DNA of 64,000 nucleotides. Source: a virus. The stretch is taken from IMG/VR virus record IMGVR_UViG_3300031920_000309, one strand, 5' to 3'. The position numbers were made by a program, and so were the translations under genes. Below are positions 21,707 to 57,448 of this stretch, one piece after another; position 1 is the stretch's first letter; each line of letters starts with the position of its first letter. Below the pieces are notes generated by a model, which did not search any database, was not told the DNA's origin, and saw nothing but the letters and a program-made list of their open reading frames with translations.

Positions 21707-22825
21707 GTGATGGTCGAGGATAAAGAGGCATACGCCAGAGTATTGGTTTTGAGAGTACTGGGTAACATATGGCAAGCCGGACTGATCAGTGACCGAGCCC
21801 GCGAAGCAATGAACTACAGACGAAACACCATTCCATGGTACAACGCCGCGCTGCTCAAGCTTGCGGCGACCCAGGCAGACCTGGCCGCACTCAAAGAATT
21901 CGTCGCGGCCAACGCGGGCGAACTACAGACCGACTACCACGGGAACGAGATCGCGTCGTTGGAACAACAGATGATAGCGCTGGAGAACAACTTACCCGTG
22001 CCACAGATGACACTCGAACAGTCTGCCAACGAGCAGCTGCGAGGTATAGTGACTGCCGTGGACGACGGTGATACCATCTTCATCGGGGAGATGGAGATCA
22101 GGCTGGCGTCGATCGATACGCCCGAGAAAGGGACGCCACGAGGCCAGGAAGCGAAGCGGTTCCTGGAGGGCATGGTGCTCAACAAAGAGGTCACGGTATA
22201 TTTCGACGAACACCAGCCGGTCGAGCTGTATGGCCGAGTGCTCGGGGTAGTGTACCTGGGGGACACGAACGTCAACCTTGAATTGGTCAAGAACTGTGTT
22301 GCGGTTGTCAACACGAAGTTTGGTCGACACAAGTATATCGATTCGGAAGAGTTCAAGAGAGAAGGAGAGAGATGTACAATTACCTGGCCAGGATATGGTG
22401 TTGTGAAGTTTTACAGTACCCCAACAAACGCTGCGGTATGGATTGATGGTATACCGTCCGACATAGTAACCCCCGGCGAGATCGATATGACGATCGGTAC
22501 CCATCGAATAACGATCATTGCACCAGACCATTCCCCGGTACACGAGACAATCGTCGTCGCCGCGGGAAAACAAGAACTGAAGTTCACGCTGTTTAAGATG
22601 CCGGTGGCGTCTGGTCTGGTTGTACTCGAATCGGACCCAGATGGGTGCGACTTCACCGTGAACGAGATTCCGTACGGGATCACCCCCACGATACTCGAAC
22701 TTGGGTCGGACGTGCCGCACGCAATAGTTTGTTACAAAGACGGATATGAACCAGCTGCAGGCAGTGTTGTCCCTGTCGCGGGAAGGAAAGTTAGAGTCAC
22801 GCTAACACTGGCCAAAGCAGATTGA
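21707..22825 (+). CDS. Coiled-coil + thermonuclease (SNase) + two PEGA domains
   Basis: VDDGDT, IRLASIDTPE, LYGRVLG catalytic motifs intact; STPTNAAVWIDG and SDPDGCDFTVNE PEGA starts. Confidence 0.9.
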   Translation: MMVEDKEAYARVLVLRVLGNIWQAGLISDRAREAMNYRRNTIPWYNAALLKLAATQADLAALKEFVAANAGELQTDYHGNEIASLEQQMIALENNLPVPQMTLEQSANEQLRGIVTAVDDGDTIFIGEMEIRLASIDTPEKGTPRGQEAKRFLEGMVLNKEVTVYFDEHQPVELYGRVLGVVYLGDTNVNLELVKNCVAVVNTKFGRHKYIDSEEFKREGERCTITWPGYGVVKFYSTPTNAAVWIDGIPSDIVTPGEIDMTIGTHRITIIAPDHSPVHETIVVAAGKQELKFTLFKMPVASGLVVLESDPDGCDFTVNEIPYGITPTILELGSDVPHAIVCYKDGYEPAAGSVVPVAGRKVRVTLTLAKAD

Positions 22826-24885: not shown

Positions 24886-24959
24886 TTGCAGGGCACGGAT
24901 TTGAACCGTGGTTCGTGCGTTCCAGGCGCACAAGGATGACCAGACTACCCTACCCCGCA
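24886..24959 (-). tRNA. Atypical tRNA-Pro(UGG)-like gene
   Basis: Cloverleaf: acceptor TGCGGGG/CCCTGCA, D loop with GG, anticodon stem GTGCG/CGCAC with loop CCTGGAA, T arm CACGG-TTCAAAT-CCGTG. Confidence 0.8.
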
Positions 24960-30094: not shown

Positions 30095-30424
30095 TTAATA
30101 CGTTCCTAATAACGGGGGTGGATATGCATGTGCATTTGGTAGTGGGATTGCCCCACATGACGCCAATAACACCAATTCCGCAATACACGCATCAGCACCC
30201 ACGCGGTCGGCCACACGATCAGTAACAATATGAAGCCAAGCCGACCACGCGGCATAAATACCACCAACCTGGCACATATACGCGACGGCATCGTCGTTGT
30301 GGAACCATTGCCTGTGGTTCGGACCGATTGCTTTTGCGTATATATCCAGTATTCGGTGGACACCAGGATATTGTACACCAATAAACATCAAGTCGACGTT
30401 CAGATGAAACCCGTGGCTCGGCAC
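30095..30424 (-). CDS. His-rich putative metal-binding protein
   Basis: GGAGG RBS; MPSHGFH...VHRILD...NHRQWFHND...LHIVTD. Confidence 0.6.
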   Translation of the reverse strand: MPSHGFHLNVDLMFIGVQYPGVHRILDIYAKAIGPNHRQWFHNDDAVAYMCQVGGIYAAWSAWLHIVTDRVADRVGADACIAELVLLASCGAIPLPNAHAYPPPLLGTY

Positions 30425-31185
30425 GACCACCCCTCCACACCGAAGTTTATTTCTGGGTTCATGGCCCAATGGTTATACAACAAACTGAACCAGTGCCATC
30501 TGTTGTGGTTCGTCTTTGTGTGGCAATTCGTGCACAGCGGTAGCAAGTTCCAATCCGCCGTTGTGCATCCTTGCATCTTGTTGTAATCGGTGTGGTGTAC
30601 ACAATGTTTTTTACCGTTCTCTTCCGCACCACACAAATAACATTTTCTATCATGCAGTTCTCGAATCTCCTCTTTCTTTGCTTCATTAAACTTGAAACAA
30701 TACGGTGCGAACGAAACACCGCCCCGCCAACCGGGGTTCTTCCCCCCCCGTTTTGCCTCGCTTAGGTTTTGTCTGGTTTCATCCGAAACATATTTATTTC
30801 TGTGAGCGTTGCCTATTTTTTGTTTGGTTTCTTCTGAAAGATGTCTTCCTTTACGCAATTCGCTTAGTTTCTTTCTGGTTTCTTCGGAAGGATGCTTGCC
30901 TCGTTTTGCTTCGCTTATTTTCTGCCGAGTTTCTTCCGAACGATGTTTACCATAATTGAGATTTTTGTTTCCTCTCTGCGCATCACTCATTTTTCGTTTG
31001 GTTTCCGCTGAATGGTATCTCCCTCTGCTTGTTTCGCTGATCGTTCGCGCACAAACACCAAACGCGTGTAGCCAGTTACGTATCGTCGTCCTGCTACAGT
31101 CAGCAAGCTTTGCAATCTCACGTGGTGACAATTCTTCAATGTCGTGTTTCTCTCGCATCCACGCTTCATTTTTGTATAGCATCAT
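30400..31185 (-). CDS. Free-standing HNH homing endonuclease with HTH and NUMOD3 repeats
   Basis: HSAETKRKMSDAQRG-type repeats; CYLCG...HCVHHTDYNK...LCTNCHTKTN. Confidence 0.92.
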   Translation of the reverse strand: MMLYKNEAWMREKHDIEELSPREIAKLADCSRTTIRNWLHAFGVCARTISETSRGRYHSAETKRKMSDAQRGNKNLNYGKHRSEETRQKISEAKRGKHPSEETRKKLSELRKGRHLSEETKQKIGNAHRNKYVSDETRQNLSEAKRGGKNPGWRGGVSFAPYCFKFNEAKKEEIRELHDRKCYLCGAEENGKKHCVHHTDYNKMQGCTTADWNLLPLCTNCHTKTNHNRWHWFSLLYNHWAMNPEINFGVEGWSCRATGFI

Positions 31186-31385
31186 TTCTCCTGAATTCGT
31201 TTTGCCATCGCAAGCAGGGCATCCAACCCATACTTCGTGATGCTGTACGTGCTGTTCGTACGGATATGTTCGTGGAGGAGCAACCAATCCCCAAACCGCT
31301 CCAGTTCCTTTGCTTCTTCTGTCGATATCAGGCAACACATACTGAACCGATTTTTCCCTCTCGGAGCAAAACTTTTCCATGGCAT
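31182..31385 (-). CDS. Small RHH-like protein
   Basis: RFSMCCLISTEEAKELE...SITKYGLDALL; ATGA-coupled to the HNH gene. Confidence 0.5.
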   Translation of the reverse strand: MPWKSFAPRGKNRFSMCCLISTEEAKELERFGDWLLLHEHIRTNSTYSITKYGLDALLAMAKRIQEK

Positions 31386-31476
31386 TGCACATCACCTCCA
31401 CATCGTGTCTTCATTTGCATGTACTACATGTAACACGGCAAAGATATATATATGTTTCCGATAAACAGACACAAAC

Positions 31477-35404: not shown

Positions 35405-36580
35405 ATGGCTGAAAGTTTCATAAGGAGACCGATCGACTTCATCTTCGATTTCGCCACAGTAAACGTGAGCGCGGGAGAAGAAGTTCGTACCGGCGAGCCA
35501 AGTTATGGCTACGAGGTCGACGGCAGGGCCGCCGTCAAGAACTACGAACTCGACAACGAGTCTGTTATGGAAATCGAAGGGATTGAAATAATGGGCCCCA
35601 ACAACGTAACGTACAGAGAAAAGCTGAAGGCGGTTAGGCTCGTTATCGACGGGAAAGAACACAACGAGATGTCGTTCAATGAGCAAATGTGTCCGGCAAT
35701 GCTTGGTGGCGCTCTGAACGTGGTACCTGACTTCAGGGACGGGTATGTATGTACCAATCTGGGGCGAGGAATGCTCGCGGGCGGTGACCCAGCAAACGCA
35801 ACTCCGAAGGTAGGACCTGGTCAGGATCTGCTTATCAGCGTAAACATGCCAAGGCTGACCGAAGGAGGCGCGGCAACCGTCAGCACCCCGATGAGAGTGA
35901 GGCTGCACACGATTCAGATCCGAGGAGAACACAAGCTCAACGAAGTGCTAGAACATTATGGGCATCTGACTAGCGGAAATGTCAATCAGTCATGGAGCAT
36001 GGGCGACCTGGAGAACACCATGGCCATGCCACTCAAGACGATCGAGAAAACTGTGGGTGACGGGGCATTTGGGTTAGCAGATTGGACCAGTCTACACGGC
36101 GGAAATGAAGCAGACCTACCGTACATCGAGAACTACATTACGTATGCGCAGAATTCTGCCGCGACCACGCCAAATGCTTGGTACCAATTCACCATGGAAG
36201 GGCAGCGCGTCGACCAGACGTTCCAGGAGCTAAACTGGAATTTCACACAGAGAGACGCACTGAAGTTGACCCACGTTGGGATGATGACGCACAACAACAC
36301 CGAGTGGGTAAGGCTGTGGAAAGACGGAAAGCCGAAGGTGCCTGAGTTCCGCGTGACACCGGCAACCAACTCGCTGCTGATGCCACAGGGCCGATGGACC
36401 AACACACCACAGCACAACGGGCCGACCAGGCTTGGTAGGTCGTACTGGGTGTGGAACGAGCATGGCGCGATAGAGCTGAAGGACAACGGGACGGCAGTTC
36501 CTGCATGGGCCGCAGTGCCGACAACTGGCGCGATGCTCGCTGTGTGGGGTAAGAGGTTCCACCTTCGCGGGACCGAGTGA
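35405..36580 (+). CDS. Putative capsid protein family A, copy 1 (double jelly-roll-like)
   Basis: 391 aa, two beta-rich halves; shares EIEG.EI, FNE..AP, T.K.GP, RYITYA.N, LTHVG, AVWG with two paralogs. Confidence 0.6.
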   Translation: MAESFIRRPIDFIFDFATVNVSAGEEVRTGEPSYGYEVDGRAAVKNYELDNESVMEIEGIEIMGPNNVTYREKLKAVRLVIDGKEHNEMSFNEQMCPAMLGGALNVVPDFRDGYVCTNLGRGMLAGGDPANATPKVGPGQDLLISVNMPRLTEGGAATVSTPMRVRLHTIQIRGEHKLNEVLEHYGHLTSGNVNQSWSMGDLENTMAMPLKTIEKTVGDGAFGLADWTSLHGGNEADLPYIENYITYAQNSAATTPNAWYQFTMEGQRVDQTFQELNWNFTQRDALKLTHVGMMTHNNTEWVRLWKDGKPKVPEFRVTPATNSLLMPQGRWTNTPQHNGPTRLGRSYWVWNEHGAIELKDNGTAVPAWAAVPTTGAMLAVWGKRFHLRGTE

Positions 36581-36969
36581 TAATCATGTACGCATCTTGG
36601 CATTTAGGCACATCGGAAGTAACGACAACCACCAAATTCGGGGTTGAAGGATATTGGGCCAAGCTGCCGGACGCATTCCCACCGATCCAGTACATCCGGA
36701 CCACATCAATCGCGGTGCCAGCCGACGGGAACACCCGTGGTTGTATCGTAACAATTGTCGAGACCACGACCGGCGACAACGGGTACGGCCCAGTACAATA
36801 CCACATAGATGCCAGGGGTATAATACAATACCAAACTGGTGATAAGTGGTTCTTGTTCAGAAGCAGGCCCGACCTGAGACTGAACCAAGAGGAACGACCG
36901 CAGATAGTATATACCCAAGTACAGTTGTACTATCGAGCATTGCCCGAAGTAGGCACCATAGGAGCGTGA
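36577..36969 (+). CDS. Small beta-rich structural protein, tandem copy 1
   Basis: MYASW.GTS.VTT.TKFGV.G.WA.LPD.FPPI family. Confidence 0.7.
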   Translation: MIIMYASWHLGTSEVTTTTKFGVEGYWAKLPDAFPPIQYIRTTSIAVPADGNTRGCIVTIVETTTGDNGYGPVQYHIDARGIIQYQTGDKWFLFRSRPDLRLNQEERPQIVYTQVQLYYRALPEVGTIGA

Positions 36970-37370
36970 TTAGCATGTATGCATCATGGCTAATCGGAAC
37001 GTCTGCAGTAACAACCGTGACCAAGTTCGGGGTTGCAGGACACTGGGCAAGATTACCAGACGCGTTCCCGCCAATACAGTTCATCAACACAACGTCAATT
37101 GCATTAGCAACAATGCCAACGAACGGATGTGTGGTGACAATCGGCGAGACAACGACTGGCGCAAACGGCCCAGGTCCGATCATTATGATCAGAGACCGCC
37201 GCGGTGTCGAACAATACGTGAAGGGTGACCGGTGGTTCAGATTGCGAAGTGGACCAGCAAATTCAAACGAAGCTGCGGTCGATCCAGCCGGGATACAAGT
37301 ACAGAGAGTGTTCACTCGGATCGAGTTGTATTACCGGGACAGTGTCGAGTTAGACACAGTGGGGGCATGA
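36966..37370 (+). CDS. Small beta-rich structural protein, tandem copy 2
   Basis: Paralog of both neighbours; GTGA overlap. Confidence 0.7.
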   Translation: MISMYASWLIGTSAVTTVTKFGVAGHWARLPDAFPPIQFINTTSIALATMPTNGCVVTIGETTTGANGPGPIIMIRDRRGVEQYVKGDRWFRLRSGPANSNEAAVDPAGIQVQRVFTRIELYYRDSVELDTVGA

Positions 37371-37771
37371 TTGAGATGTATGCCACATGGTTGGTAGGAA
37401 CGTCCGAAGTGACAACCGTGACCAAGTTCGGGGTTGCAGGACACTGGGCAAAACTGCCCGATGTATTCCCGCCAATAGAGTTCATCAACACAACGTCGGT
37501 AGCAATAGGAGCAATGCCATACCGAGGGTGCATCGTAACGATCGTTCAGACAACGACCGGCGACAACGGCCCCGGACCGGCAATAATGACAAGCGATCGG
37601 CGCGGTGTTGAAGCGTATGTAAAGGGTGACAGGTGGTTCCGTCTGAGAAGTGGACCAGCGACCCTGAATGCATTGGCAGTAGACACGGACAACATAGACG
37701 TACAACGAGTGTACACACAAATAGAGTTGTACTACAGAGACAGGGTAGATGGTGGAGAGATCACCGCGTGA
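37367..37771 (+). CDS. Small beta-rich structural protein, tandem copy 3
   Basis: Paralog with long identical nucleotide runs to copy 2. Confidence 0.7.
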   Translation: MIEMYATWLVGTSEVTTVTKFGVAGHWAKLPDVFPPIEFINTTSVAIGAMPYRGCIVTIVQTTTGDNGPGPAIMTSDRRGVEAYVKGDRWFRLRSGPATLNALAVDTDNIDVQRVYTQIELYYRDRVDGGEITA

Positions 37772-37800
37772 TCAACCCACCCAACTTTTCTTTTTTCTAT
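37772..37800 (+). terminator. U-rich archaeal terminator at a convergent junction
   Basis: CTTTTCTTTTTTCTATTTT after the stop codon. Confidence 0.55.
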
Positions 37801-38906
37801 TTTGTGTATTTGTCGTAGAACGTCTGGGGTACCAGATCGAGTTTTGCCATGAGCCAGAACAACGGTCGAAGTCGTTTGAACCACGGGCGGTATGTTTTAT
37901 AGTCCGTATGATCGAGTGGCGGACGATCCATTATATCACAACCGAATTCCGCGGAACCAACACCAAGCCGGTGTAATACAGTTTGTTTGGTGGCAGAACC
38001 AAATGCAGGATACGAACGAATTGTTTTCAGCGCATCGTCTCGATCCATCTGACCAGACCGCACCAGCGCAGAATACTCAACCAACCTGAGATCTATACCG
38101 AACTTGTGGTACAGATAGTAGTCATCACAAAACTCGGTGAGGGTGTTTTCTTTGTGGTGACCGCCGTACCATCTCCACCCGAACCTTTTCGCAAGGTATT
38201 GTTTTGCACCTTCCTTGTCATAATCCAGATAGTACAATGGCCGAACATGCTTGATGCGTTTTACGAGGGTCCACCACAACCAATCTCTGAGCCACAGATT
38301 AGGGAACGTCTTAAGTATGCCGCCAGACACCTCATCGACATACTTGCCATCAAAATAGAACCAACCAGGGGGCGTAACCCCTTCAGTCCTAAACGAATGA
38401 CCGTTCAATATGTATTTGATGCCGTACATTTCGGCAGCTCTATACGCACACACCGCCAGCGCAACGTCCACAGGAGCATCGAGTTCTGGTACCCCGGCAC
38501 GCAAAAACGCGCGGGTGATATCATCATACTCGTTAAGATCACACCGGAACCGCATACAACCGACGCCAAGTTCTTCAAGCACAACCTTCATGTTATGTTC
38601 AGCGATGTCCGTGTTCCAACCATTGTCACAATGAACGGCGAGTGGCCGCAGTCCGTTTTGGACCGCAAGATCAAGCAGGTACGACGAATCGCACCCACCC
38701 GAAATACCCACAACACAATCGTACGGCTTGTTTTTGCCAGACTTTCGTATTTTGTCAACCAGATCGTCCAAGAAAAACGCACCGGCAGGACCAGTTGGAC
38801 ACTTCTCACACATCACATCGTGTTGTTTACAGTAGTTACATTCACCAAACGAATCAAACTCTATGCCCGGGATGCTGTCGTCCATGACACAGCGAGAACA
38901 TCTCAT
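37797..38906 (-). CDS. N-acetyl sugar amidotransferase (WbpG/WbuX-like, PP-loop)
   Basis: CSRCVMD...CNYC N-terminus; YDCVVGISGGCDSS; VHCDNGWN; YGGHHKEN. Confidence 0.92.
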   Translation of the reverse strand: MRCSRCVMDDSIPGIEFDSFGECNYCKQHDVMCEKCPTGPAGAFFLDDLVDKIRKSGKNKPYDCVVGISGGCDSSYLLDLAVQNGLRPLAVHCDNGWNTDIAEHNMKVVLEELGVGCMRFRCDLNEYDDITRAFLRAGVPELDAPVDVALAVCAYRAAEMYGIKYILNGHSFRTEGVTPPGWFYFDGKYVDEVSGGILKTFPNLWLRDWLWWTLVKRIKHVRPLYYLDYDKEGAKQYLAKRFGWRWYGGHHKENTLTEFCDDYYLYHKFGIDLRLVEYSALVRSGQMDRDDALKTIRSYPAFGSATKQTVLHRLGVGSAEFGCDIMDRPPLDHTDYKTYRPWFKRLRPLFWLMAKLDLVPQTFYDKYTK

Positions 38907-39407
38907 TCAGATACCACCATAACCTGCTCCACCGTTAGTTACTTTTCTATACCGAAGCACACGTGCCGGATTACCCGCAGCCACCGCAAATGGGAATATG
39001 CTCTTGGTGGCCACGGCACCGGCGCCGACCATGACACCTTCACCGATTTCAACACCAGGCATAATGATTGCCCCGACACCGATATCAACATTGTCGTGGA
39101 TGCGAACAGGCCAATACACAAGGTCGTTGTCTATTATCGGAGAATCCCAACCAACGCCATCAATCTTGTGTGTAGACGTGATAATCTTCACATGAGGCCC
39201 GATACCAACATTGTTGCCAATGATAATATCACCAGCACCGTGTATATACACACCCTCTCCTATCCACACATCATCTCCGATTGTTATGCCATTACCATAA
39301 CCACCATCCAAGTATGTACCACAACCGATGGACACACGAGCGCCAACACGGATGTTACTACCATTACTATAAGACACACCACGGAACCGACCAGTAATTG
39401 AGTCCAT
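38907..39407 (-). CDS. Hexapeptide-repeat (LbetaH) acyltransferase
   Basis: IGDDVWIG, IGNNVGIG, IGVGAIIMPGVEIGEGVMVGAGAV, GNPARV. Confidence 0.92.
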   Translation of the reverse strand: MDSITGRFRGVSYSNGSNIRVGARVSIGCGTYLDGGYGNGITIGDDVWIGEGVYIHGAGDIIIGNNVGIGPHVKIITSTHKIDGVGWDSPIIDNDLVYWPVRIHDNVDIGVGAIIMPGVEIGEGVMVGAGAVATKSIFPFAVAAGNPARVLRYRKVTNGGAGYGGI

Positions 39408-39411
39408 ACTA

Positions 39412-40371
39412 TCACCTACCTTTTGCCCATTCTACAAAGCATCCCCATTTCTCAGCAATAACCGACGCATGGTGATGCGACCGGACCCACAGTGGCGCAT
39501 GACGAGACACCAAACCAGCCCCAGCATCATACGATTTGATGTCAAGGATGCGCGTTTTGACCACCTCGTACATGTCAAGACCATCACACGGTTTAACAGG
39601 GAAATCTGGGTAGATCATATAGCACCAAGGCCCGATGTAAGAGACAACGTGCTGCTGAAGAACCATTGCTTCGAGTACGTTAAGTCCATATGTCGGCATG
39701 ACCAGATCGTCGATCACAACGTGTGATTTTGCTTTCCGTTTGATCGTCTGTTCCCACGACAGGCCAGATATGGCATCAAACTTGACACCAGCCAGATCAG
39801 GATCAGATTCAAGTCGGGTGATAAGTTCACCACCCTTCGATCCGGGATTGGTATGCGCATGGCAAACCGTAAACTCATCGTTCTTTTCAATACCGTCAAC
39901 AAGTTCTACGATTTCGTCGATGTCAACGATGACAAAATCAAATGGTACGCCAATCAGTTGAGTTGTGAGAGTTTCGTCCTGAGGGGGAGTCACGACAACC
40001 AAATCACGTTTGATCTGAGCCATAAGCACCTGATCAACGGTGTGACGAAGGCCAGACCCGACACCAACGATACAATGGTTATTCGGAGTCAGGTACCGAC
40101 CGAGTGGAAGTTGTGGGATGTCAACGATCGAGTCCAGGAATATGAAATACGTACAATTCGAAGCATATTCCAACACGGTCGCAATTCCAACATTCTGCTC
40201 AAATACCCAGTCAACTGGATATTGGAGATAAGACTCACCAAACACCAGGCACCTCGCATCCCACCCAAGATATTTCTTCATCGCCTTAGCCATCAACCAA
40301 CCCTGGTTCCCGGAGTCCATACCCCCGGTCCCAGGGCCAATGCCAGCCACTATGAGAACTTGTTCGTTCAT
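39412..40371 (-). CDS. GT-B (GT4-like) glycosyltransferase
   Basis: VIDDLVMPTYGLNVLEAMVL signature. Confidence 0.8.
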   Translation of the reverse strand: MNEQVLIVAGIGPGTGGMDSGNQGWLMAKAMKKYLGWDARCLVFGESYLQYPVDWVFEQNVGIATVLEYASNCTYFIFLDSIVDIPQLPLGRYLTPNNHCIVGVGSGLRHTVDQVLMAQIKRDLVVVTPPQDETLTTQLIGVPFDFVIVDIDEIVELVDGIEKNDEFTVCHAHTNPGSKGGELITRLESDPDLAGVKFDAISGLSWEQTIKRKAKSHVVIDDLVMPTYGLNVLEAMVLQQHVVSYIGPWCYMIYPDFPVKPCDGLDMYEVVKTRILDIKSYDAGAGLVSRHAPLWVRSHHHASVIAEKWGCFVEWAKGR

Positions 40372-41348
40372 AATAAATCACGCTCTTCAAGGTGCCCGAC
40401 CAATCTATCATAACTATTTTTCAGGTTGTAATACTTGCACGCTTCTGTACCACGTTCCGCCTCCCACGTGGCGAACTCGGCATCGGTAAGCAACTTCTCA
40501 AGAAGAATGTCAACAGCAACCTCATCATGAGGAGACACCGCGAGTTCTGGCCATATGTGATTCATGGCATGTATGGTGTTCGACCCGATGGTAGGAACAC
40601 CGAGCGCGGCAGCCTCGACAATGCCTCTGCCGTACGTGTAGTCTGGGGCGAGATCGATATTGACGAAACAATCACCGAGCATATCAAGATACACCGCATA
40701 CGGTGACCGATCGACGATGTCATCGAACAGCGAGTCCAATGCAACGACGACAGTTGTATCGTTGTAGTTCATGAGGGCGGTGCGGATGCCGAACTGCTCT
40801 CTGTCGTGCCTCAGCCGGTACGTGCCGTAATAATAAGTGGCCCAGGTGTACATATACCGATGGTATTGGCAGGCCACCAACGGAGGTAGTGACGGCTGTT
40901 TGCGGTACGACATGATTTTGTCAACGTCCACTGGATGTGGGATAGCTGGAACGTCGTAACCGAGATAGTGCTCAAGACGACGAGCACCGTTCGGCTCAAC
41001 ATGGAATACAAAGTCCGCAAGCGCGAGCTGCTGTCGCAGGATGAGAGGATCTATGCTATTCCACAATCCAATCGCGAAGTCAACCTGTGTGACGATCTTT
41101 GTGTCACTATCAGGCCCAATGGCATCACGGATCGCAGCGATGTAGCTGGCATTGCTTGGGGTATAGTTGACATGGATTATGTCGAACTGTTCTATCAGTT
41201 CTTTCGTTAGATTCGCAGACATGTCACCCTTTTTGCCATGCGTATCAAATGCCACCGGCCAATTGAACAATCCACCAAGCACAATCTGATCCGATCCCGC
41301 AGGCATCTGGGCGCCCGAGAACAAACAATAAGATATTCTTCTAGTCAT
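40368..41348 (-). CDS. GT-B (GT4-like) glycosyltransferase
   Basis: YTYGRGIVEAAALGVPTIGS signature. Confidence 0.8.
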   Translation of the reverse strand: MTRRISYCLFSGAQMPAGSDQIVLGGLFNWPVAFDTHGKKGDMSANLTKELIEQFDIIHVNYTPSNASYIAAIRDAIGPDSDTKIVTQVDFAIGLWNSIDPLILRQQLALADFVFHVEPNGARRLEHYLGYDVPAIPHPVDVDKIMSYRKQPSLPPLVACQYHRYMYTWATYYYGTYRLRHDREQFGIRTALMNYNDTTVVVALDSLFDDIVDRSPYAVYLDMLGDCFVNIDLAPDYTYGRGIVEAAALGVPTIGSNTIHAMNHIWPELAVSPHDEVAVDILLEKLLTDAEFATWEAERGTEACKYYNLKNSYDRLVGHLEERDLL

Positions 41349-42318
41349 GTTTATCACGCGCGTTTTCTGTGTACCAATCAACAGTTTTTTCGATCCCGTC
41401 TTCAAACGACACGAGCGGATCATATCCAATCAGATCCCGTGCCAAATACGTGTTTGCGATATGCCTTCGCACGTCACCAGGCCGGTCATCTTGCCAGTCA
41501 ATCTCGACACTAATACACATTGCATCGATTATGGCGTCAATGACTTCATTGGTACTGGTCTCTTTACCAGACCCAATGTTGACAACCCGCCCTCGCGTTT
41601 TGGGCTGCTTGTACATATCGATTGCAGCACGAACTACATCAGTCACATAGCTATAATCCCGAGTTTGTTCACCGTTACCATATATGACAGGACGTCCACA
41701 ATTGAGCAGCCGTTTAATGGTAACGGGGATGATAGCCGCATACGTGCCGCAGTTCTGACGTGGACCAAATATATTAAACGGACGAAGTATTGCGCAATCG
41801 ATCCCAAACGTCTCGCGATACGACTGGATCAACATGTCGGACGCTGCTTTGCTGGCAGCATATGGAGTCAGTGGGCACAACGGATGATCCTCGCCCATGC
41901 TGACACGTTGGCTCGTGCCGTACGCTTCGGACGATGAGAAGTGTATCAACGTGTCGTAATACTCCTCACACAGCAACTCGCACATGGTTGAGGTGATGTT
42001 GATGTTGTTCAAGAAACTTTCCCGTGGGTGCACCAACGACGCGGGCAGCGGCTGTACCGCGAGATCGAACACCACATCAACACCACGGCTGGCCATGATA
42101 TCACGCGTGGTATTGTAATCTGCCACACCACATGCCGCGTCATACAACACGACACCAGGGAAGTGTGTGTCTGCGAGGTTGTCATACGAACCCAATGACA
42201 TATCGTCGACGACTACAACCTGGGACACCCGTTCTTTCACCAACGCATCGACAAGATGGCTGCCCACAAACCCGGCACCCCCGGTGACCATTACAACTTT
42301 ATTCTTCAGGGACAACAT
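41341..42318 (-). CDS. NAD-dependent nucleotide-sugar epimerase/dehydratase (extended SDR)
   Basis: VTGGAGFVGSH, SSSEAYG, PYAASK, RPFNIFGPRQ, TRDYSYV. Confidence 0.95.
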   Translation of the reverse strand: MLSLKNKVVMVTGGAGFVGSHLVDALVKERVSQVVVVDDMSLGSYDNLADTHFPGVVLYDAACGVADYNTTRDIMASRGVDVVFDLAVQPLPASLVHPRESFLNNINITSTMCELLCEEYYDTLIHFSSSEAYGTSQRVSMGEDHPLCPLTPYAASKAASDMLIQSYRETFGIDCAILRPFNIFGPRQNCGTYAAIIPVTIKRLLNCGRPVIYGNGEQTRDYSYVTDVVRAAIDMYKQPKTRGRVVNIGSGKETSTNEVIDAIIDAMCISVEIDWQDDRPGDVRRHIANTYLARDLIGYDPLVSFEDGIEKTVDWYTENARDKHD

Positions 42319-42322
42319 TTGA

Positions 42323-43447
42323 TTATAACCCCGCGTACACATACCGTTTCAGCAGCATTTCGATTTCGTTCACAACCCGTTCCTGGCCCTCTACCCCCAG
42401 ACCATGATACATCGGCAAAGTAAGCAGCTGATGATACAACCCCAACGAATTGCCAAAATCCGCGCACCGATCAACGTGAACAGCATAAAACGGCTGCTGG
42501 TGAAGAGCGTACGTGCCAATCTGGGTTTCGATCCCAACCCTTTTCAGGTCTCGGATCAACGCGTCACGCCACGACGCTTGGTCGACGTTTATGCAGTACG
42601 ATTGGTATGTTTGTCGTTCGTCACCAGTCGATGGAACGGGGGTGGTAACGTGATCAACGTCTTTCAACAACTCGTCGTATGTGCGTGCCATCGCGTTGCG
42701 TTCGGTAATTATCTGATCAATCTTACTCATCTGAACAAGACCGATCGCAGCATTGATGTCAGACATTTTCATGTTATATCCTGCACATTCTATGCGGCCA
42801 TCGGCCCACCCGAAGTTCTTGCGAACACGCATCTCATCGGCAAGCCCGCCGTCGTTCGTGACCACCATACCGCCTTCCCCAGTCGTAATGATCTTGCGCG
42901 GATGGAACGACAGAACCGACATATCGGCAAACGACCCAGTCATCTCACCATTTGATTGGCGAGCACCGAAACTGCATGCACAATCTTCGATTACGATATG
43001 GTCCGAGTCACACAACCTATGATCCCACACGTCATCGCGTATGGGACGTCCGCCCCAAGACACGAGCATCGTGGCACCAATGGGATACGGCATGCCCATC
43101 ATGTGATCAAGAGCATTGACACCAATACACTGAGTATGTGGATCAACATCAACCAACATTGGGTGGAACCCGTTGTGTATCACGCTGTTTGCCGTAGCAG
43201 GGTGCGTGAAATCGGGAACAATTACCCGCGTGGAATTCATACAAGCCCTGGTAACACGAACTGCCAAGTCCAGCCCCATTGAACAGGACGGAACGGCGAT
43301 GGCATGTTTCACACCAACGTATTTGGCGACAGCTTCCTCGAACTCGATGACAATTTCACCTTCGGTCAGATGTCCAGAGTCCATGACATCAGCAACAGAC
43401 TGTTTTTCTTCTTCACCGACCCACGGACGCATCAGAGGAATGTTCAT
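42323..43447 (-). CDS. DegT/DnrJ/EryC1/StrS sugar aminotransferase
   Basis: VIEDCACSFG, SFHPRKIITTGEGG (PLP Lys), GYNMKMSDINAAIGL, LTLPMY. Confidence 0.95.
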   Translation of the reverse strand: MNIPLMRPWVGEEEKQSVADVMDSGHLTEGEIVIEFEEAVAKYVGVKHAIAVPSCSMGLDLAVRVTRACMNSTRVIVPDFTHPATANSVIHNGFHPMLVDVDPHTQCIGVNALDHMMGMPYPIGATMLVSWGGRPIRDDVWDHRLCDSDHIVIEDCACSFGARQSNGEMTGSFADMSVLSFHPRKIITTGEGGMVVTNDGGLADEMRVRKNFGWADGRIECAGYNMKMSDINAAIGLVQMSKIDQIITERNAMARTYDELLKDVDHVTTPVPSTGDERQTYQSYCINVDQASWRDALIRDLKRVGIETQIGTYALHQQPFYAVHVDRCADFGNSLGLYHQLLTLPMYHGLGVEGQERVVNEIEMLLKRYVYAGL

Positions 43448-45139: not shown

Positions 45140-45475
45140 ATGCCTATATTAGGACGAGACGAGCCAGCAACAACAATAACACAACTAAAAATAAGTATTG
45201 CAGCGGCAGGACCGAACGAAATAATCGCAACACCTGGGGCGGGCAAACAGTTATGGATACACAAATTAATGTTATCGGTTGCAAGAGGAAGTCAGACTGC
45301 TATCACATACCAGTCGGGTGCAAACGAATTGTCTGGTGCGATGCAAGCAGATGTTATTGCAGACGACCTGGGATCATCCCCCATGAAATGTAATACAAAC
45401 GAAGCGTTCAATGTGACGTTATCTGACGCAGTTGCTGTGACAGGGTACGTGATGTACCAGGTGGTCAACGCATGA
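45140..45475 (+). CDS. Small single-jelly-roll-like protein, copy 1
   Basis: IAAAGPNEIIATPGAGKQLWIHKL...CNTNEAFNVTLS; paralog of 46625-46972. Confidence 0.65.
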   Translation: MPILGRDEPATTITQLKISIAAAGPNEIIATPGAGKQLWIHKLMLSVARGSQTAITYQSGANELSGAMQADVIADDLGSSPMKCNTNEAFNVTLSDAVAVTGYVMYQVVNA

Positions 45476-46614
45476 GTGTATCAAGAGATATCGTGGATTT
45501 TTATTTCAACATGGACCCAGCAAGCAACAAATCTGGAGTAGGGGTCGCTACCGGGGTGGAAATCTGGACCGGTGACAACGAAGACTATTTCGCAGTATTG
45601 AATGGCGTAATGACAAACACCAAATGGGAACTGCCAAACAATACCGTGGGCGAGATAGAAGGGGTTGAAATATATCTATACCCAGACTCACTTACGGGCA
45701 CGTATAACCAACTGAACTTTGTGCGGATCGATGTGAATGGTATAGATATACCAAACATCAATTTATGCGAACTAATGGCCCCTATGAACAGTCTGGGAAG
45801 GCAACCAGACTTAGGGCCATGGAGAGATGGGTCAGTATATCAGAACATTGGATTGCCGATATTGTTAGGCCATGATGGAACACGACCGACGATCAAACTT
45901 GGGCCAGGTGATATTGTTAGATGCCATGTGCAAAATTGTACTGCAGCACAAGGAGGAGTAACAATAAATGAAGCACTGGTTGTAAGATTGCACGTCGTAA
46001 CTGCGAAACAACCAGACATAGACGAAATGTTCGGGGGAACCATAGACCAGTCATTCGGTATACCGGGCGAACCGATGATATCAAAAACCGTGGATGCGTC
46101 GATACACGAGTGGCCAAAATTGCATGGAGGACAAAAGGCAGAACGGCCTAATGTAGAACGGTATATCACGTACGCTCGCAACATGACAGCAACAAGTCCA
46201 CACAAACGATACCGGTTTGATACGTCAGACGGTTCGGTGTTGGGAGATTGGTCAGAACTCGTCTGGGCGACCGACGATATTAACGCAGTCGAACTAACCC
46301 ACATCGGTGTCGCGGAAGACGAAACGAACCAGATAGGAAACCCACCGAACCTAGCATGGTTACACTTGCCAGAAAACAGAACACTTGCTTATTGTTATCC
46401 AATCGTACCATATATTGGGGTAGGACAGTTCCAGATGCCACTGCATAGAAGACTGTTACAAATGTTCGACGGTCCTGGAAAATTACCAGCACCGATAATA
46501 TTACAGAACGCCACAGAGTCGATTGAGATCCAAGACAACGGGAATGCCATACAAGCATGGGCAACAGGACCAGGTGTAAAAGTAGCAGTGTGGGGACGGA
46601 AATTTTACGTGTAG
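45472..46614 (+). CDS. Putative capsid protein family A, copy 2
   Basis: GEIEGVEI, RDGSV..NIG, TIKLGPGD, RYITYARN, LTHIGV, VAVWG. Confidence 0.6.
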   Translation: MSVSRDIVDFYFNMDPASNKSGVGVATGVEIWTGDNEDYFAVLNGVMTNTKWELPNNTVGEIEGVEIYLYPDSLTGTYNQLNFVRIDVNGIDIPNINLCELMAPMNSLGRQPDLGPWRDGSVYQNIGLPILLGHDGTRPTIKLGPGDIVRCHVQNCTAAQGGVTINEALVVRLHVVTAKQPDIDEMFGGTIDQSFGIPGEPMISKTVDASIHEWPKLHGGQKAERPNVERYITYARNMTATSPHKRYRFDTSDGSVLGDWSELVWATDDINAVELTHIGVAEDETNQIGNPPNLAWLHLPENRTLAYCYPIVPYIGVGQFQMPLHRRLLQMFDGPGKLPAPIILQNATESIEIQDNGNAIQAWATGPGVKVAVWGRKFYV

Positions 46615-46624
46615 GTGATTAAGA

Positions 46625-46972
46625 ATGGTAGATTATGATCCAAGAACAATTGGTTGGCTTGATCCAGCCGGACTGGACACAGATCCAGTGAGTATCGCTG
46701 CGGCAGGTGCAAACGAAGTAATAGCAGCACCAGGAGCAGGACGACAGTTGTGGATATACAAATTGGTGTTGGTGGTAGCAAGGAACCAAGCGGTAGATAC
46801 AACGTTACAAACAGGAACAACAGATTTCTCTGGTGCATTGCCATTCGACGGCATGTCAGAAGATCTGGACTGGAAGCCATTACGATGTGGGACAAACGAA
46901 GCGTTCAACATCACATTGTCTGCGGCAGTCGCGGTCACTGGGTTTGTGACGTATAGAACAGTGGTGGTCTGA
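46625..46972 (+). CDS. Small single-jelly-roll-like protein, copy 2
   Basis: IAAAGANEVIAAPGAGRQLWIYKL...CGTNEAFNITLS. Confidence 0.65.
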   Translation: MVDYDPRTIGWLDPAGLDTDPVSIAAAGANEVIAAPGAGRQLWIYKLVLVVARNQAVDTTLQTGTTDFSGALPFDGMSEDLDWKPLRCGTNEAFNITLSAAVAVTGFVTYRTVVV

Positions 46973-46974
46973 AA

Positions 46975-48663
46975 ATGAGTTATATATATAGAAGACCTGG
47001 ATTGGAACTGTTGGCAACGTTGCCTGCACATTACGAACGTGATCAGAACTGGCAACAGAAAGGATTTGCAACAGCAGACGAACGTTACACGTTGCAAAGT
47101 CCGAACTTGATGACGGTGAACATAGATGGTGACGGATACGTATTAGACGGACAACAGGATTACGAGCTGACCACGTTAACAAACTGGGACAATTACACCA
47201 TAACCGATTGGGCCGCACTGACTGCTTACGAAGTCGGCGATCTGGTTTTGCCCGTTGTTGGTGGTGCAAACTGTATTTATGTTTGTGCTGTAGCGGGTAC
47301 GAGCGGGGCGGCTGAACCTGCCTGGTCAGTAGTTAAAAACGCAAACAACGTAGACGCAACAGCCCAGTGGACTACAACATTTGATAACACGATAGCTGCG
47401 CAACGCGCGGGATACGATCATTACGTGTATGCGTGTGTACCGGCAGGAGGAACTACACCAGACATCATACTGAGTGACAACGTGACAATTCCGATTGGAT
47501 ACACAACTGACAATTCTCGTAAAATAAGCGGGTTCCATTGCGAGTGTGTGGCAATTGGTGTGATAGGTGGGCATGTTCTAACCGGTTACGTGGCTGGAGA
47601 CATTCTGCCATTGTCTGTTTGGGACCTAAACTTCAGATCGGCTGGGTTACAAGAAGGCATGATCCACGACGAATTAGCCCATCAATGGGCCGGAATCTAT
47701 ATGAACTCAGGAACTGGCGCGAACACCGTTTCTGTTTACGGGGCTACAGCAACAGATTCTCGTGATTGGATGGATTCCGTTGATGATTGTGGTGCAGTTG
47801 GATGCAAGTTGCCAACCGACGATGAGTTCCAGATCATAGCTCGTGGTAGCAACGAAGAAACCAACGCAGCAGGAGGGGCAGATCCTGTGACCACAGGAGG
47901 ACACCTGGACACTGCCGGACGAAGGATGACTTCGGACGATGGTTGTGAAGATTGTTGTGGTGCATGGAACCAATGGACCAGGACGTATGGATATCGTGCA
48001 GACGGTCTGACAATGGAAATTGTTGCCGGAGAGAAAACCGTCACGGTATATCATGATGTAGTGCCAGACGGGAACCAGATTTATCTGAAATTTGACAACG
48101 GTCAGCCATATCTATGCTGTAACATGGCAAACGACACGGTTGACAAGATAATTACGCTTGGCACTGATTACAAAATAACAATCGTACATGATGTTGGTGC
48201 AGCAGGCGGGTTGCCAATTTATTTCGATGACGACGCAACACAACCATCGAGACTGTTGGTAAACAACACGATACTAACGAAAGATTGTTACATACTGAGT
48301 AACAGCCCATCGTACATGTTAAAACTGAAACACGACGCGGGAGCGGCAGGAAACGGATCTGCCCTCCACTTCGATGACGGGGGGGACGAACGGTTGGAAT
48401 CCAATTGCGCAGGAACAGCGAACGCTGCAATCGACCTGGCATACTTTGATTCAGCTGAACTAGCGTTCTTGTACGAGGACTTACCCGGCGCGAAAGGATC
48501 GTTGTACAGACAAGGAACATACGGAGATGCGTTCTTGCTTGCCGGTGGAAATTGGGCGAATGCGGCGGACGCCGGTTCGCGGTATCGGAGTGCGCTTTAC
48601 TCTCGCTGGTATGCGGCTGCGAGTCTCGGTTGCCGGGTGGTCGCGGAGTCGAAGACGTCGTGA
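46975..48663 (+). CDS. Mtd-like receptor-binding protein (CBM-like module, Mtd N-terminal domain, C-type-lectin/FGE domain)
   Basis: WAALTAYEVGD..YVCAVAGTSGAAEP; YVYAC..PIGYTTDNSRKISGFH; LPTDDEF; CEDCCGAWNQW; AGGNW..GSR..RW..GCRVVAE. Confidence 0.88.
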   Translation: MSYIYRRPGLELLATLPAHYERDQNWQQKGFATADERYTLQSPNLMTVNIDGDGYVLDGQQDYELTTLTNWDNYTITDWAALTAYEVGDLVLPVVGGANCIYVCAVAGTSGAAEPAWSVVKNANNVDATAQWTTTFDNTIAAQRAGYDHYVYACVPAGGTTPDIILSDNVTIPIGYTTDNSRKISGFHCECVAIGVIGGHVLTGYVAGDILPLSVWDLNFRSAGLQEGMIHDELAHQWAGIYMNSGTGANTVSVYGATATDSRDWMDSVDDCGAVGCKLPTDDEFQIIARGSNEETNAAGGADPVTTGGHLDTAGRRMTSDDGCEDCCGAWNQWTRTYGYRADGLTMEIVAGEKTVTVYHDVVPDGNQIYLKFDNGQPYLCCNMANDTVDKIITLGTDYKITIVHDVGAAGGLPIYFDDDATQPSRLLVNNTILTKDCYILSNSPSYMLKLKHDAGAAGNGSALHFDDGGDERLESNCAGTANAAIDLAYFDSAELAFLYEDLPGAKGSLYRQGTYGDAFLLAGGNWANAADAGSRYRSALYSRWYAAASLGCRVVAESKTS

Positions 48664-48677
48664 GGTACGATCCTTCG
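48540..48677 (+). other. DGR variable-region-like segment with downstream hairpin
   Basis: A-poor 3' end with NNY/GCG codons at typical variable sites; imperfect hairpin 48650-48677. Confidence 0.65.
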
Positions 48678-48707
48678 CCCCAATATACAACAAAGGTGAT
48701 ATGAACA

Positions 48708-49025
48708 ATGAAGAACTATCCAAGAACGCCACCGGTCTTGTTCACAGCACAGGATTGGAGCAATCTGTTGGCAGACGACAGGTTCGCAGAACGAGCAGAG
48801 AGAGATCTCGAAACTATAAGAGATCTGGACGATGACAAGGTAACGAGGTGTATCCAAGTAGCAGATCCAAACGATCCGAAAAGCAAAGACATCATAGAGT
48901 TGATCGACAATCCGGCACCAGCGTACAGAAGAGGAACCGGGTGCAAGACAAGAGCAGAGATGACCACCAGATTCAAACTGAAACCAACCGGAAGGGTAAT
49001 TGAACATGGGGTAATAAAAAGATGA
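48708..49025 (+). CDS. Hypothetical protein following the Mtd-like gene
   Basis: GGTGA RBS. Confidence 0.7.
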   Translation: MKNYPRTPPVLFTAQDWSNLLADDRFAERAERDLETIRDLDDDKVTRCIQVADPNDPKSKDIIELIDNPAPAYRRGTGCKTRAEMTTRFKLKPTGRVIEHGVIKR

Positions 49026-50187: not shown

Positions 50188-51198
50188 ATGGTTTTCATGG
50201 GAATTTCCAGTATCCGGGTCGAGATATCAGAGCTGAGTGTATCGAAATCGGGGTGGACAACGTTGTTCGTCGATAAAAATTTCGCTGCTGCATCAGACGA
50301 CAACGATGGGTACTCTTGGTCAAGGCCAAAGAAAACGATTGGTGGTGCTCTTGCGGACGCAAAATCATGGTGTAAAATTTATGTAAATAGTGGACAATAT
50401 GAAGAAAACATCACAATTTCATACGAACATGTACAAATAATCGGTGTCGCAAAAGACGGTCCGGACATTGTCAACCTAAAATCAAGCATAGGAACACCAT
50501 TAACAATAACGGCTGGCTTCTGTGAGCTACAGACCTTAGCTGTAGAAGCTATAGATCAGCACGGAATCCAGGTTACTGCGCCAGGACACATATTAAATGA
50601 CGTAGTGGTAGCTATCACAAACACAACCGGTGTCGCCAGGATAGGGATATGGCTTAACGATTCGGACAGCACTGAAATTAAGAACTGCCATATAGACGGA
50701 AACGGCGACGACGAGGTGATCGGTATACTTGTTGGCGATGATACAGTTGGTGCGGAAGTCACGGAAAACTATATCACAGGATGTGGAGATGGGATTGGTG
50801 TGGGATGTGGAGCGGGAGGAGCTTGTACAGCAAACGGATATGCGATCGGAATTGCGGAATCAGCACAACGATGTATAATCAGCGACAACGAAATAATAAC
50901 TAATTGTGTGGGAGTTTACTTTTACAAGGTCGGAGCTGATGCGTTCAAGGGACATGCTGTCTTGCACAACGCATTCTGGGAAAATTGCTCATACGACGTG
51001 TTTGATTTATATGCTCCAGAAATAAGCGCAATTGCAATAAGAGAAAATTATTATGGTTACAGCGGCTGGTTCGTGGATTCCAACAACGACGGGCGGGCCG
51101 ACATCATCGTAGACTGTAACACAAACAAAGACCACGCACCCCTATTCAATCCCCAGACCTGGCGGACGGAAGCTATTTCTAGAGCGGGGTACATATGA
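50188..51198 (+). CDS. Right-handed beta-helix (pectin-lyase/NosD-like) protein
   Basis: PKKTIGGAL, G.Y.ENI start; periodic IKNCHI, VTENYI, ISDNEI, VLHNAF repeats. Confidence 0.85.
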   Translation: MVFMGISSIRVEISELSVSKSGWTTLFVDKNFAAASDDNDGYSWSRPKKTIGGALADAKSWCKIYVNSGQYEENITISYEHVQIIGVAKDGPDIVNLKSSIGTPLTITAGFCELQTLAVEAIDQHGIQVTAPGHILNDVVVAITNTTGVARIGIWLNDSDSTEIKNCHIDGNGDDEVIGILVGDDTVGAEVTENYITGCGDGIGVGCGAGGACTANGYAIGIAESAQRCIISDNEIITNCVGVYFYKVGADAFKGHAVLHNAFWENCSYDVFDLYAPEISAIAIRENYYGYSGWFVDSNNDGRADIIVDCNTNKDHAPLFNPQTWRTEAISRAGYI

Positions 51199-52076
51199 AG
51201 GGCATGGACCCGAGTGTGACATACAAAAACTACGATTGGATGTACCAAAAATACATTGTCGAAGAACTGTCCACACCAAAAATAGCAGACGTTGTGGGGT
51301 GTGGGAGCACAACTGTTTTTAGGTGGCTAAGAAAACTGGGAATCCGCCCCCGCTCTCGCAGCGAAGCTTGTCGTGGGAATAAAAACCACAACCACGGCAC
51401 AACGTTGTCAGAAAACACGCGGAAGAAAATTGGTGACGCACAACGTGGTAAACTTGTTTCAAATAAAACCCGGATGAAGATGAGCAAGGCACAAACGGGC
51501 AGGATACAATCGGAAAAGACTCGCAATAAAATCAGCGATGCTAAACGTGGTAAACCGTTGCCAGAAAAAACCCGACAAAAAATGAGCAAGGCACGCCAGG
51601 GACCAAAAAACCCAAATTATGGTAAACATCATTCGCCAGAAGCACGTCAGAAAATGGGTGATGCTGAGCGAGGCGAGAAACACCACTATTACGGCAAGAC
51701 GTTCACAGCCGAACACCGGAAGAAAATTGGTGACGCACAACGTGGTAAGAAAGGATCTAATTGGCACGGAGGCATTTCGTTCGAACCATACTGCCCAGCA
51801 TTCAACAAATCCAAGAAAGAAGAAATAAGAGAATCACACGGCAGGAAATGTTTCTTGTGTGGTGCTGGTGAGAACGGTAGAAAACATGCAGTCCATCATA
51901 CGGATTACAACAAGATGCAAGGATGTGACACAGAAGATTGGAATCTAATACCATTATGCAATCAATGCCACTCGAAGACAAACTTCAATCGATGGTACTG
52001 GTTCAGTCTTCTGTATAGTAACTGGGTTATGAACCCAGACATAAATTTCAACACGGCGGTGATAACACAATGGTGA
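51195..52076 (+). CDS. Free-standing HNH homing endonuclease with HTH and NUMOD3 repeats; paralog of 30400-31185
   Basis: LSENTRKKIGDAQRG repeats; CFLCG...HAVHHTDYNK...LCNQCHSKTN. Confidence 0.92.
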   Translation: MKGMDPSVTYKNYDWMYQKYIVEELSTPKIADVVGCGSTTVFRWLRKLGIRPRSRSEACRGNKNHNHGTTLSENTRKKIGDAQRGKLVSNKTRMKMSKAQTGRIQSEKTRNKISDAKRGKPLPEKTRQKMSKARQGPKNPNYGKHHSPEARQKMGDAERGEKHHYYGKTFTAEHRKKIGDAQRGKKGSNWHGGISFEPYCPAFNKSKKEEIRESHGRKCFLCGAGENGRKHAVHHTDYNKMQGCDTEDWNLIPLCNQCHSKTNFNRWYWFSLLYSNWVMNPDINFNTAVITQW

Positions 52077-56330: not shown

Positions 56331-57448
56331 TGGCGATTTTGCGCTGGCCCATGGACTTCCTATTTGACTTTACCAGCGTACCACTGTTAGCTGGCGACAA
56401 AGCCACGACAGGGGACAACATCGCACATACGACACTGGTTAATGGAAGCAGAATCCACCCCGCATGGGAGATGCCTGCCGATTCGGTAGGAGAAATCGAA
56501 GGTGTAGAGATTCTACTACAACCAGACGCAGCCACAGACATATACAACCCACTTGAGTACGTAAGAGTAGAAATAAACGAAGTAGAGATAGAAAACATAA
56601 CGTTCAACGAACTAACGGCTCCAATGCAGTCGGGAGGGACACCACCGGGGGGAGACCCATTCCGAGATGGTGGCGTGTGTATAAATATCGGAAAAGGGCT
56701 ATTGGTGGGGGGAGATCCGACCACACCGACAATCAAAATCGGGCCAAAAGATAAAGTCAGAGTCGTGGTAAAGAACACCAGGGCTGCATATGGCGGTGTT
56801 ACAATAAACGAACTGTTGGTGGTTCGGTTATGGGTGGCGACTGCAAACCAGTTTGATCTCGAACAAAAGTGGACGGACGGACGGATACCGATAGGAACAG
56901 CATCAGCACCGAAAACAATTCTGGCCGAGATAGAAAAATGGACAGAAGGAAACGGAGGCGCGGAAGTGAAGACGCCGCATTTCCAGAGATACATCACGTA
57001 CGCAAAAAACATAACACCAACCACACAAAACGACCCTTACACGTTTGCAAGAAGAGCAGGCACAACAGAAGATCTATGGTCGGACTTGGACTGGAGAGTA
57101 GACACATCCAGAGTCGTGCAACTAACGCACGTGGGGGTTGCTGAAGACGAATCAAATGGTATCCACGTTGCACCGAACGTGTCGTGGATCAAACTTCCTC
57201 ATTATCCAGTTGAGCTGCCGATAGTTTATCCGGTGGCGCCGTACCCGAGCCTGGGACAATTCCCGATGCCGTTGAATCGGAACATGGACCCAACGTTTGG
57301 AGCACCCGGTAAGTTGCCACAGCCGATTAATATTTATAACGAGAACTGTTCACTAACGATACGTGACAGGGGAGATCCAGTCGTCGCATGGGCGCCAGGA
57401 GACGTGGGTGTAAAAATCGCGGTATGGGGATATATATATTATGTGTGA
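56330..57448 (+). CDS. Putative capsid protein family A, copy 3
   Basis: GEIEGVEI, FNELTAP, FRDGGVCINIG, TIKIGP, RYITYAKN, LTHVGV, IAVWG. Confidence 0.6.
   Translation: MAILRWPMDFLFDFTSVPLLAGDKATTGDNIAHTTLVNGSRIHPAWEMPADSVGEIEGVEILLQPDAATDIYNPLEYVRVEINEVEIENITFNELTAPMQSGGTPPGGDPFRDGGVCINIGKGLLVGGDPTTPTIKIGPKDKVRVVVKNTRAAYGGVTINELLVVRLWVATANQFDLEQKWTDGRIPIGTASAPKTILAEIEKWTEGNGGAEVKTPHFQRYITYAKNITPTTQNDPYTFARRAGTTEDLWSDLDWRVDTSRVVQLTHVGVAEDESNGIHVAPNVSWIKLPHYPVELPIVYPVAPYPSLGQFPMPLNRNMDPTFGAPGKLPQPINIYNENCSLTIRDRGDPVVAWAPGDVGVKIAVWGYIYYV

Follow-up and report, generated by a model that had tools for sequence, protein, structure and literature searches.

The DGR of phage BPP-1 (mtd-VR, avd, TR, brt) diversifies the receptor-binding protein Mtd through a variable region (VR), the final ~130 nt of the gene, which codes for a lectin-fold binding face; avd, the template repeat (TR) and the reverse transcriptase (RT) gene brt all lie within 1.7 kb of the VR. 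The AdtA DGR of ANMV-1, a virus of marine sediment, likewise acts on the C terminus of an Mtd-like lectin-fold target, and its intact cassette comprises an RT, two 114-bp repeats and Avd-like ORFs (PMC4372165). Phage-associated DGRs can also act in trans and on targets that do not adjoin the RT but lie as much as about 50 kb from it; in such cases, which include the Treponema denticola TvpA family, the VR lies inside a prophage without an adjoining RT and is served in trans by a matching TR in the same genome (PMC5758913). Remote targets have been missed by surveys (PMC8144416), and as DGR surveys begin from the RT, targets that have lost their retroelement go unseen.

We analysed a 64,000-nt stretch of viral DNA (IMG/VR record IMGVR_UViG_3300031920_000309; hereafter the window). 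On the target side, it works like a phage DGR of the BPP-1 and ANMV-1 type. As in BPP-1, the target is a member of the Mtd family, the VR occupies the last ~130 nt of the gene and the encoded surface is a lectin-fold binding face, with the same VR motif in the two proteins, in the order GG.W, GSR, RW and G.R (GG.W....SGSR....W........G.RG in BPP-1, GGNW....AGSR.R....RW......GCR in the window). ANMV-1 shares with the window an origin in marine sediment and an Mtd-like lectin-fold target diversified at its C terminus, and its hairpin has a three-base loop like that of several members of the window's Mtd family; this likeness is drawn from the published description of ANMV-1 rather than from a comparison of sequences, and does not imply that the window comes from an archaeal virus. 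Unlike both systems, the window has no recognizable TR or RT near its VR. The features of the target gene are as follows.

46975–48663, + strand: predicted Mtd-family receptor-binding (tail-fibre tip) gene, 562 aa (ORF, Pfam, PHROG and fold match)
47359–47625, + strand: predicted Mtd second domain, aa 129–217 (PF21916, mtd_2nd; E 2e-14, above the curated cut-off)
48010–48480, + strand: beta-rich insert with three internal repeats, aa ~346–502 (translation, 40-sequence consensus; pLDDT about 90)
48528–48660, + strand: DGR variable region, approximate limits (A-poverty, codon-position variation, TR comparison)
48628–48648, + strand: G+C-rich 3′ end of the VR with the family-conserved GCGGAG, putatively IMH-like (20-locus alignment; VR/TR alignments of L005 and L007)

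Several lines of comparison point to an Mtd-family protein, as the earlier note had proposed from the sequence alone. In addition to the PF21916 match, the 562-aa product resembles phrog_11262 (tail protein; E 5e-38) and is 28% identical to BPP-1 Mtd over 191 aa (E 8e-12); a match to FGE-sulfatase was weak (E 0.065) and below the Pfam cut-off. An AF2 model built from a 40-sequence family alignment (mean pLDDT 77.7) had as its best Foldseek matches in the PDB five Mtd variants, 1YU0–1YU4 (E about 1e-11, probability 1.0), followed by the DGR variable protein TaqVP (5VF4) and then by formylglycine-generating enzymes (FGE). Sequence and model together give an Mtd second domain with a C-terminal domain of lectin fold after it, and place the VR at the C terminus of a ligand-binding domain with the C-type-lectin/FGE fold.

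Between the conserved lectin-fold part and the VR lies the three-repeat insert, which is kept across the family. Each of its three ~45-aa repeats has a core of the form ...HD.(G)AAG...(Y/H)FDD..., and no counterpart is present in BPP-1 Mtd; the window protein, with ~155 aa of insert, has 562 aa compared with 381 aa for BPP-1 Mtd. We found 868 homologues of the window protein, and nearly all of those listed carry PF21916. A single 90% cluster unites it with four others (P0001, P0121, P0123 and P0124), encoded at loci that are syntenic with the window (L003, L008, L010 and L009, respectively). A megablast search of the window sequence against GenBank phages gave no match.

The 3′ end of the gene has the composition expected of a DGR product. 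A makes up 11.3% of the VR (133 nt) and 29.0% of the remainder of the gene (binomial p 9e-7). A-poverty of this degree is found in only 0.06% of all + strand stretches of 133 nt, and the AT skew of this 3′ end is −0.38, with positive values around it. This bears out the A-poor tail reported in the earlier note, and the codons it quoted are present in frame at 48586–48630. Such a tail could also arise without a DGR, by ordinary mutation combined with strong positive selection or through local base composition; phage receptor-binding tips often evolve fast, and the window holds no TR that would prove templating. The pattern of variation, however, makes this explanation very improbable. Across the window gene and its four close relatives, 43 of 133 VR columns and 250 of 1,553 upstream columns vary, and the variable sites are distributed over codon positions 1, 2 and 3 as 22/16/5 in the VR and 32/30/188 upstream (Fisher p 2e-15). 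Positions 1 and 2 therefore vary in the VR while position 3 keeps T or C. Among the 43 variable VR columns, 33 have an A in at least one of the five genes; of the 90 that are invariant, just 4 are A.

Comparison of near-identical relatives points the same way. L003 and L009 differ at 27 sites over 2,098 nt, of which 23 fall inside 126 nt of the VR and about 21 of those 23 are inferred A-sites. Outside the VR, these two loci show only four clustered changes (T/C and GGT/AAG; L003:1108–1122, about aa 340–344 of the Mtd-like protein). L010 and L008 have 23 differences in 7,025 nt: 8 fall in 56 nt of the VR and 9 are clustered at the end of the contig, which leaves 6 for the rest. Changes in the VR between near-identical relatives include AGT versus TCT, which both encode Ser, so that this double change is beyond explanation by protein-level selection and is a further argument against a non-DGR origin.

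The template itself can be approached through the TRs of more distant relatives. When the window VR was aligned to the TR of L062, 73 positions matched, and mismatches fell at 21 of 32 TR adenines compared with 12 of 74 other bases; the TRs used here are heterologous ones from relatives with a complete cassette, so the confinement of substitutions to template adenines is seen indirectly, but the VR appears to follow it. The earlier note had reconstructed a template for the quoted codons by restoring adenines, and the reconstruction is nearly identical to the actual TRs of L007 and L083, which read AAT GCG AAT AAC/AGC TAT CGC TGG AAT ACG/GCG AAT.CG AAT ATC over this stretch. That the VR equals distant TRs save at their adenines, and that homologous genes at 52 loci have a TR 166–207 nt downstream, is difficult to reconcile with selection or composition alone. 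Taken together, the A-depletion, the variation at positions 1 and 2, the nearly A-free invariant columns and the match to distant TRs except at adenines identify 48528–48660, on sequence grounds, as a genuine DGR VR, and the comparative evidence thus upholds the earlier proposal of a DGR-type VR at the C terminus of an Mtd-like gene.

To place the window in its family, we surveyed 80 IMG/VR loci that encode family members, found by means of the 40-sequence alignment; a search with the single protein had returned no related IMG/VR loci. In 52 of the 80, a TR matched the VR at 50/50 and lay 166–207 nt downstream in register, apart from one at about 1.35 kb, and an RVT_1 gene followed the TR wherever the contig reached far enough. 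Canonical members from IMG/VR and other metagenomes (for example, L005, L007, L017, L059 and L062) have targets 44–59% identical to that of the window, which they match in the order of domains, in the insert and in the VR motif; unlike the window, they also have a hairpin, the TR and an RT of 320–340 aa. An alignment of 20 family loci after the stop codon revealed a conserved hairpin, GTAACA-loop-TGTTAC, followed by GGGTTGG, about 10–15 nt before the TR. The seventh pair of its stem covaries, being A-T in L017 and T-A in L005 and L015. A scan with the pre-TR hairpin motif gave no matches in IMG/VR and only chance-level matches in the window. Two loci depart from this arrangement in other ways: L026 has an RT right after the gene and no TR that the scan described below could find, and in L089 a match of 45/50, with 44 positions exact, lies 1.2 kb upstream of the VR and is perhaps a duplicated C terminus.

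Neither of the two defining parts of a DGR was found with the window VR. Using 50-nt pieces of the VR, we looked for a template on both strands and took a position to fit where the two sequences agreed or where the candidate template had A. The best score in the window was 42/50, equal to that of shuffled queries (39–42), and the flanking contigs L012 and L013 gave at best 42 and 37; the positive controls L005 and L007 returned their TRs at 50/50, 182 and 189 nt downstream. The DNA examined amounts to 65.9 kb, that is, the window and 1.9 kb of flanks from Logan contigs, which add 1.6 kb beyond its right end and 0.3 kb beyond its left end. A general repeat search of the window, run at default sensitivity, did not pair the VR with any other sequence. 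No RT was detected in the window by tblastn with Brt and two family RTs or by Pfam on about 39 window ORFs, and an unfiltered search of all six frames of window and flanks with an HMM built from 24 family RTs gave a best E of 0.81 (control locus, 8e-175). The neighbouring ORFs tested have no Pfam family. BPP-1 Avd had no tblastn match in the window; canonical relatives also lack a recognizable Avd, so its absence here says little. The window element is therefore not a complete DGR, in agreement with the earlier note, whose author had found no TR, RT or avd by eye.

A wider search for the template was also negative. A long degenerate VR/TR pattern had no match in IMG/VR, and a shorter core pattern matched only the VR of L008 itself among JGI metagenome contigs and nothing in IMG/VR. 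The core pattern also matched a GTDB Iamiaceae MAG, inside an ABC-transporter ATPase gene, and we discarded this match as due to chance. The earlier note had looked to a TR-like copy and to A-specific variation in reads or homologues as the tests of its proposal: no TR copy was recovered, whereas homologues vary strongly at A-sites.

A missing cassette might in principle be an artefact, in which the real genome has a TR and RT that were collapsed out of the assembly, because VR and TR repeat one another and repeats can be joined wrongly in metagenome assembly. We consider this the least probable of the explanations weighed here. The TR-less synteny is identical in five independent assemblies (Logan, JGI, two ENA/MEGAHIT and the source of the window), all five of which have a proper ribosome-binding site before the next gene; moreover, VR and TR share no exact run that could collapse at k = 31 or more, and the junctions lie in unique sequence. 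In the source-sample assembly, one contig passes through the VR with a single allele, which is weak evidence against a VR that is still being diversified, as contigs drop rare variants. Contigs assembled from a subsurface run represent a 90–95% relative of the window locus. Runs X3 and X4, which share small numbers of words with the window, contain relatives rather than the same virus.

The sequence downstream of the VR, where canonical relatives have their hairpin, TR and RT, bears the marks of a deletion.

48650–48677, + strand: imperfect hairpin described in the earlier note (chance level)
48664–48707, no strand: intergenic gap of 44 nt, the putative deletion scar (site of hairpin, TR and RT in canonical relatives)
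48708–49025, + strand: gene of 105 aa after the gap, without a Pfam or PHROG family (synteny kept in every close relative; bounds the deletion on the right)

The gap in the window retains no trace of the family hairpin, a TR stub or an RT. The hairpin pointed out in the earlier note does not survive scrutiny: its folding energy is −6.2 kcal/mol (z −0.36), 71 of 200 shuffled sequences fold as well, and it has no homology to the family-conserved hairpin. By comparison, the four closest relatives (L003, L009, L008 and L010) have kept the conserved hairpin and the pre-TR motif, followed by a TR stub of ~20 nt that matches the 5′ edge of their own VR and then by unrelated A-rich DNA up to the next gene. 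Gap lengths form a series of 171 nt (L003 and L009), 101 nt (L008 and L010) and 44 nt (window), and in a further relative, from the subsurface, 82 nt replace 28. The truncated TRs that survive at the canonical site in the closest relatives indicate that TR and RT were deleted from that place, a loss rather than a relocation. Apart from Mtd, structural-module proteins of the window gave no tblastn match in L004, L005 or L007, so the right edge of the deletion cannot be mapped onto the canonical cassette. The stretch 48628–48648 coincides with the point at which VR/TR homology stops in canonical relatives, consistent with a predicted IMH-like role.

Loss of the cassette has recurred in the family. 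About 11 of the surveyed IMG/VR loci have neither TR nor RT despite 2–10 kb of downstream sequence, and two more are ambiguous. TR-less L016 and L023 break off directly after the hairpin or at the upstream edge of the TR, which implies that loss occurred more than once. Three complete genomes with TR-less homologues (69, 58 and 41 kb, with direct terminal repeats) encode no RVT_1 protein, and the control record was positive. At two further loci from a single sample (IMG/VR, 3300037608), the proviruses L040:1–13509 and L082:1–12564 share 11,686 nt, up to and through the Mtd-like gene, at 99.97% identity; past the target gene, one has TR and RT (about 1.57 kb) and the other has 625 nt of unrelated sequence, and the two rejoin for 253 nt only. 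The pair may be a natural polymorphism between DGR-positive and DGR-negative forms, or else may reflect alternative assembly.

These observations suggest the following history. The ancestor would have carried the standard family cassette, consisting of the target gene, the GTAACA-loop-TGTTAC hairpin, a TR about 170–205 nt downstream and a DGR RT, and would have used adenine mutagenesis to rewrite the lectin-fold tip of the receptor-binding protein. A deletion in the lineage of the window would then have removed the whole RT and left little of the TR, and further erosion in the window genome may have left the present 44 nt between stop codon and next gene. In the orphaned VR, the depletion of A and the NNY codons would be the imprint of the last homing events; the VR probably still forms the receptor-binding surface and may now change by ordinary mutation and recombination. 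With TR and RT deleted, the hypervariable tip is most likely frozen, and we consider it fairly probable that the window VR is a deletion-orphaned and now static product of a former DGR.

A competing possibility, which we judge less probable but of real weight, is that the VR is still diversified by a TR and RT that are not adjacent to it, acting from the ~7.5 kb (or more) of genome beyond the 65.9 kb examined (the presumed source contig is 73,473 nt) or in trans. In the trans variant, a co-infecting DGR-positive relative may supply a TR that matches this VR; L040 and L082, identical through the target gene and from one sample but with TR and RT in only one, suggest that DGR-positive and DGR-negative forms may co-occur. 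An argument for a live template is that the VR holds nearly all the changes that separate near-identical TR-less relatives, with 23 of the 27 differences between L003 and L009 and, between L008 and L010, 8 in 56 nt compared with 6 over about 6,900 nt (a count that omits the 9 differences clustered at the contig end). The differences between L003 and L009 span the whole VR, which fits a fresh homing event, and six 3′ sites are A in L009 and G in L003, as in a fresh TR copy; the AGT/TCT double change at Ser and the retention of the G+C-rich VR 3′ end in the window agree with this as well. Both pairs, furthermore, have the same truncated TR stub. If this truncation predates the split of the two sub-lineages, whose flanks are about 5–8% apart, then the VRs changed after the loss and a template elsewhere would be needed.

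Several observations nevertheless weigh against continued diversification. No TR or RT is present from −47 kb to +17 kb of the VR, and the cognate TR was found in none of the JGI contigs (including those of L008's own sample), IMG/VR or GTDB sequences scanned; non-adjacent DGR targets, by contrast, have a matching TR in the same genome (PMC5758913), and the window has none in 65.9 kb or three public collections. The complete genomes of other TR-less family members are without any RT, and the hairpin conserved between VR and TR is gone from the window. The tract of differences between L008 and L010 lies inside the VR, and the variable codons on its 3′ side are the same in both, a poor fit to 3′-anchored homing that is better explained by recombination among existing alleles. 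The earlier note had left the choice between diversification in trans and a relic; for the window genome we favour the relic, and assign service from a distal or trans template the lesser likelihood just described. More broadly, adenine mutagenesis may still be rewriting the receptor-binding tip in members of this lineage that have neither TR nor RT, with the template supplied from outside the canonical cassette by a co-infecting DGR-positive strain or by a distant module of the genome; this is a tentative proposal that we think rather unlikely. If true, such genomes would be cheaters that profit from hypervariation while sparing themselves the retroelement. The near-identical TR-less pairs that differ in their VR make such trans service of orphan VRs testable.

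A deletion-orphaned VR, our preferred reading, belongs to a class that is uncatalogued in RT-centred surveys (PMC8144416). Within the window's Mtd family, decay can be followed from the full cassette through hairpin and TR stub to nothing, and about one in six members of this large viral-metagenome family is orphaned, including the three complete RT-less genomes. The graded decay and the one-in-six loss are modest additions, being new observations on a known kind of system, and they offer a concrete case for how often phages give up programmed tropism switching. For annotation, an A-poor C terminus with NNY codons in an Mtd-like gene marks a DGR product even where no RT is present.

The remainder of the window contains further features of interest. 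Upstream of the target gene, two small paralogous genes (45140–45475 and 46625–46972; 111 and 115 aa), with about 76% nucleotide identity over parts, each precede a large structural gene, and proteins of 380 and 372 aa have a C-terminal motif in common (46573–46612 versus 57407–57446). These paired small and large genes look like duplicated fibre or adaptor modules. Three tandem paralogous units of ~400 nt, 68–79% identical, occupy 36577–37771 (ORFs of 127, 131 and 134 aa). They are followed by a sugar-modification cluster (37797–43447, − strand), directly upstream of the structural module, with a DegT aminotransferase, a NAD epimerase/dehydratase, a hexapeptide acyltransferase and a weak GT4 glycosyltransferase match. 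NUMOD3 homing-endonuclease-like genes are found at 30400–31392 and 51195–52076; the latter, inside the structural module, also has an HNH domain with a bit score at the Pfam cut-off, and L008 and L010 have a NUMOD3 gene of differing length in the matching place. A giant ORF of 2,881 aa (12754–21399, − strand) has PEGA-domain and SNase-domain genes as neighbours (10017–12751, − strand, and 21710–22822, + strand). The left end of the window encodes an ArdA antirestriction gene (105–701), and there is a single tRNA, tRNA-Pro(TGG), at 24886–24959. At the right end, a 3′-open ORF that reaches 572 aa in the flanking contig L012 (L012:10968–12686) matches PF27228 (MTBMA_p00010_2nd).
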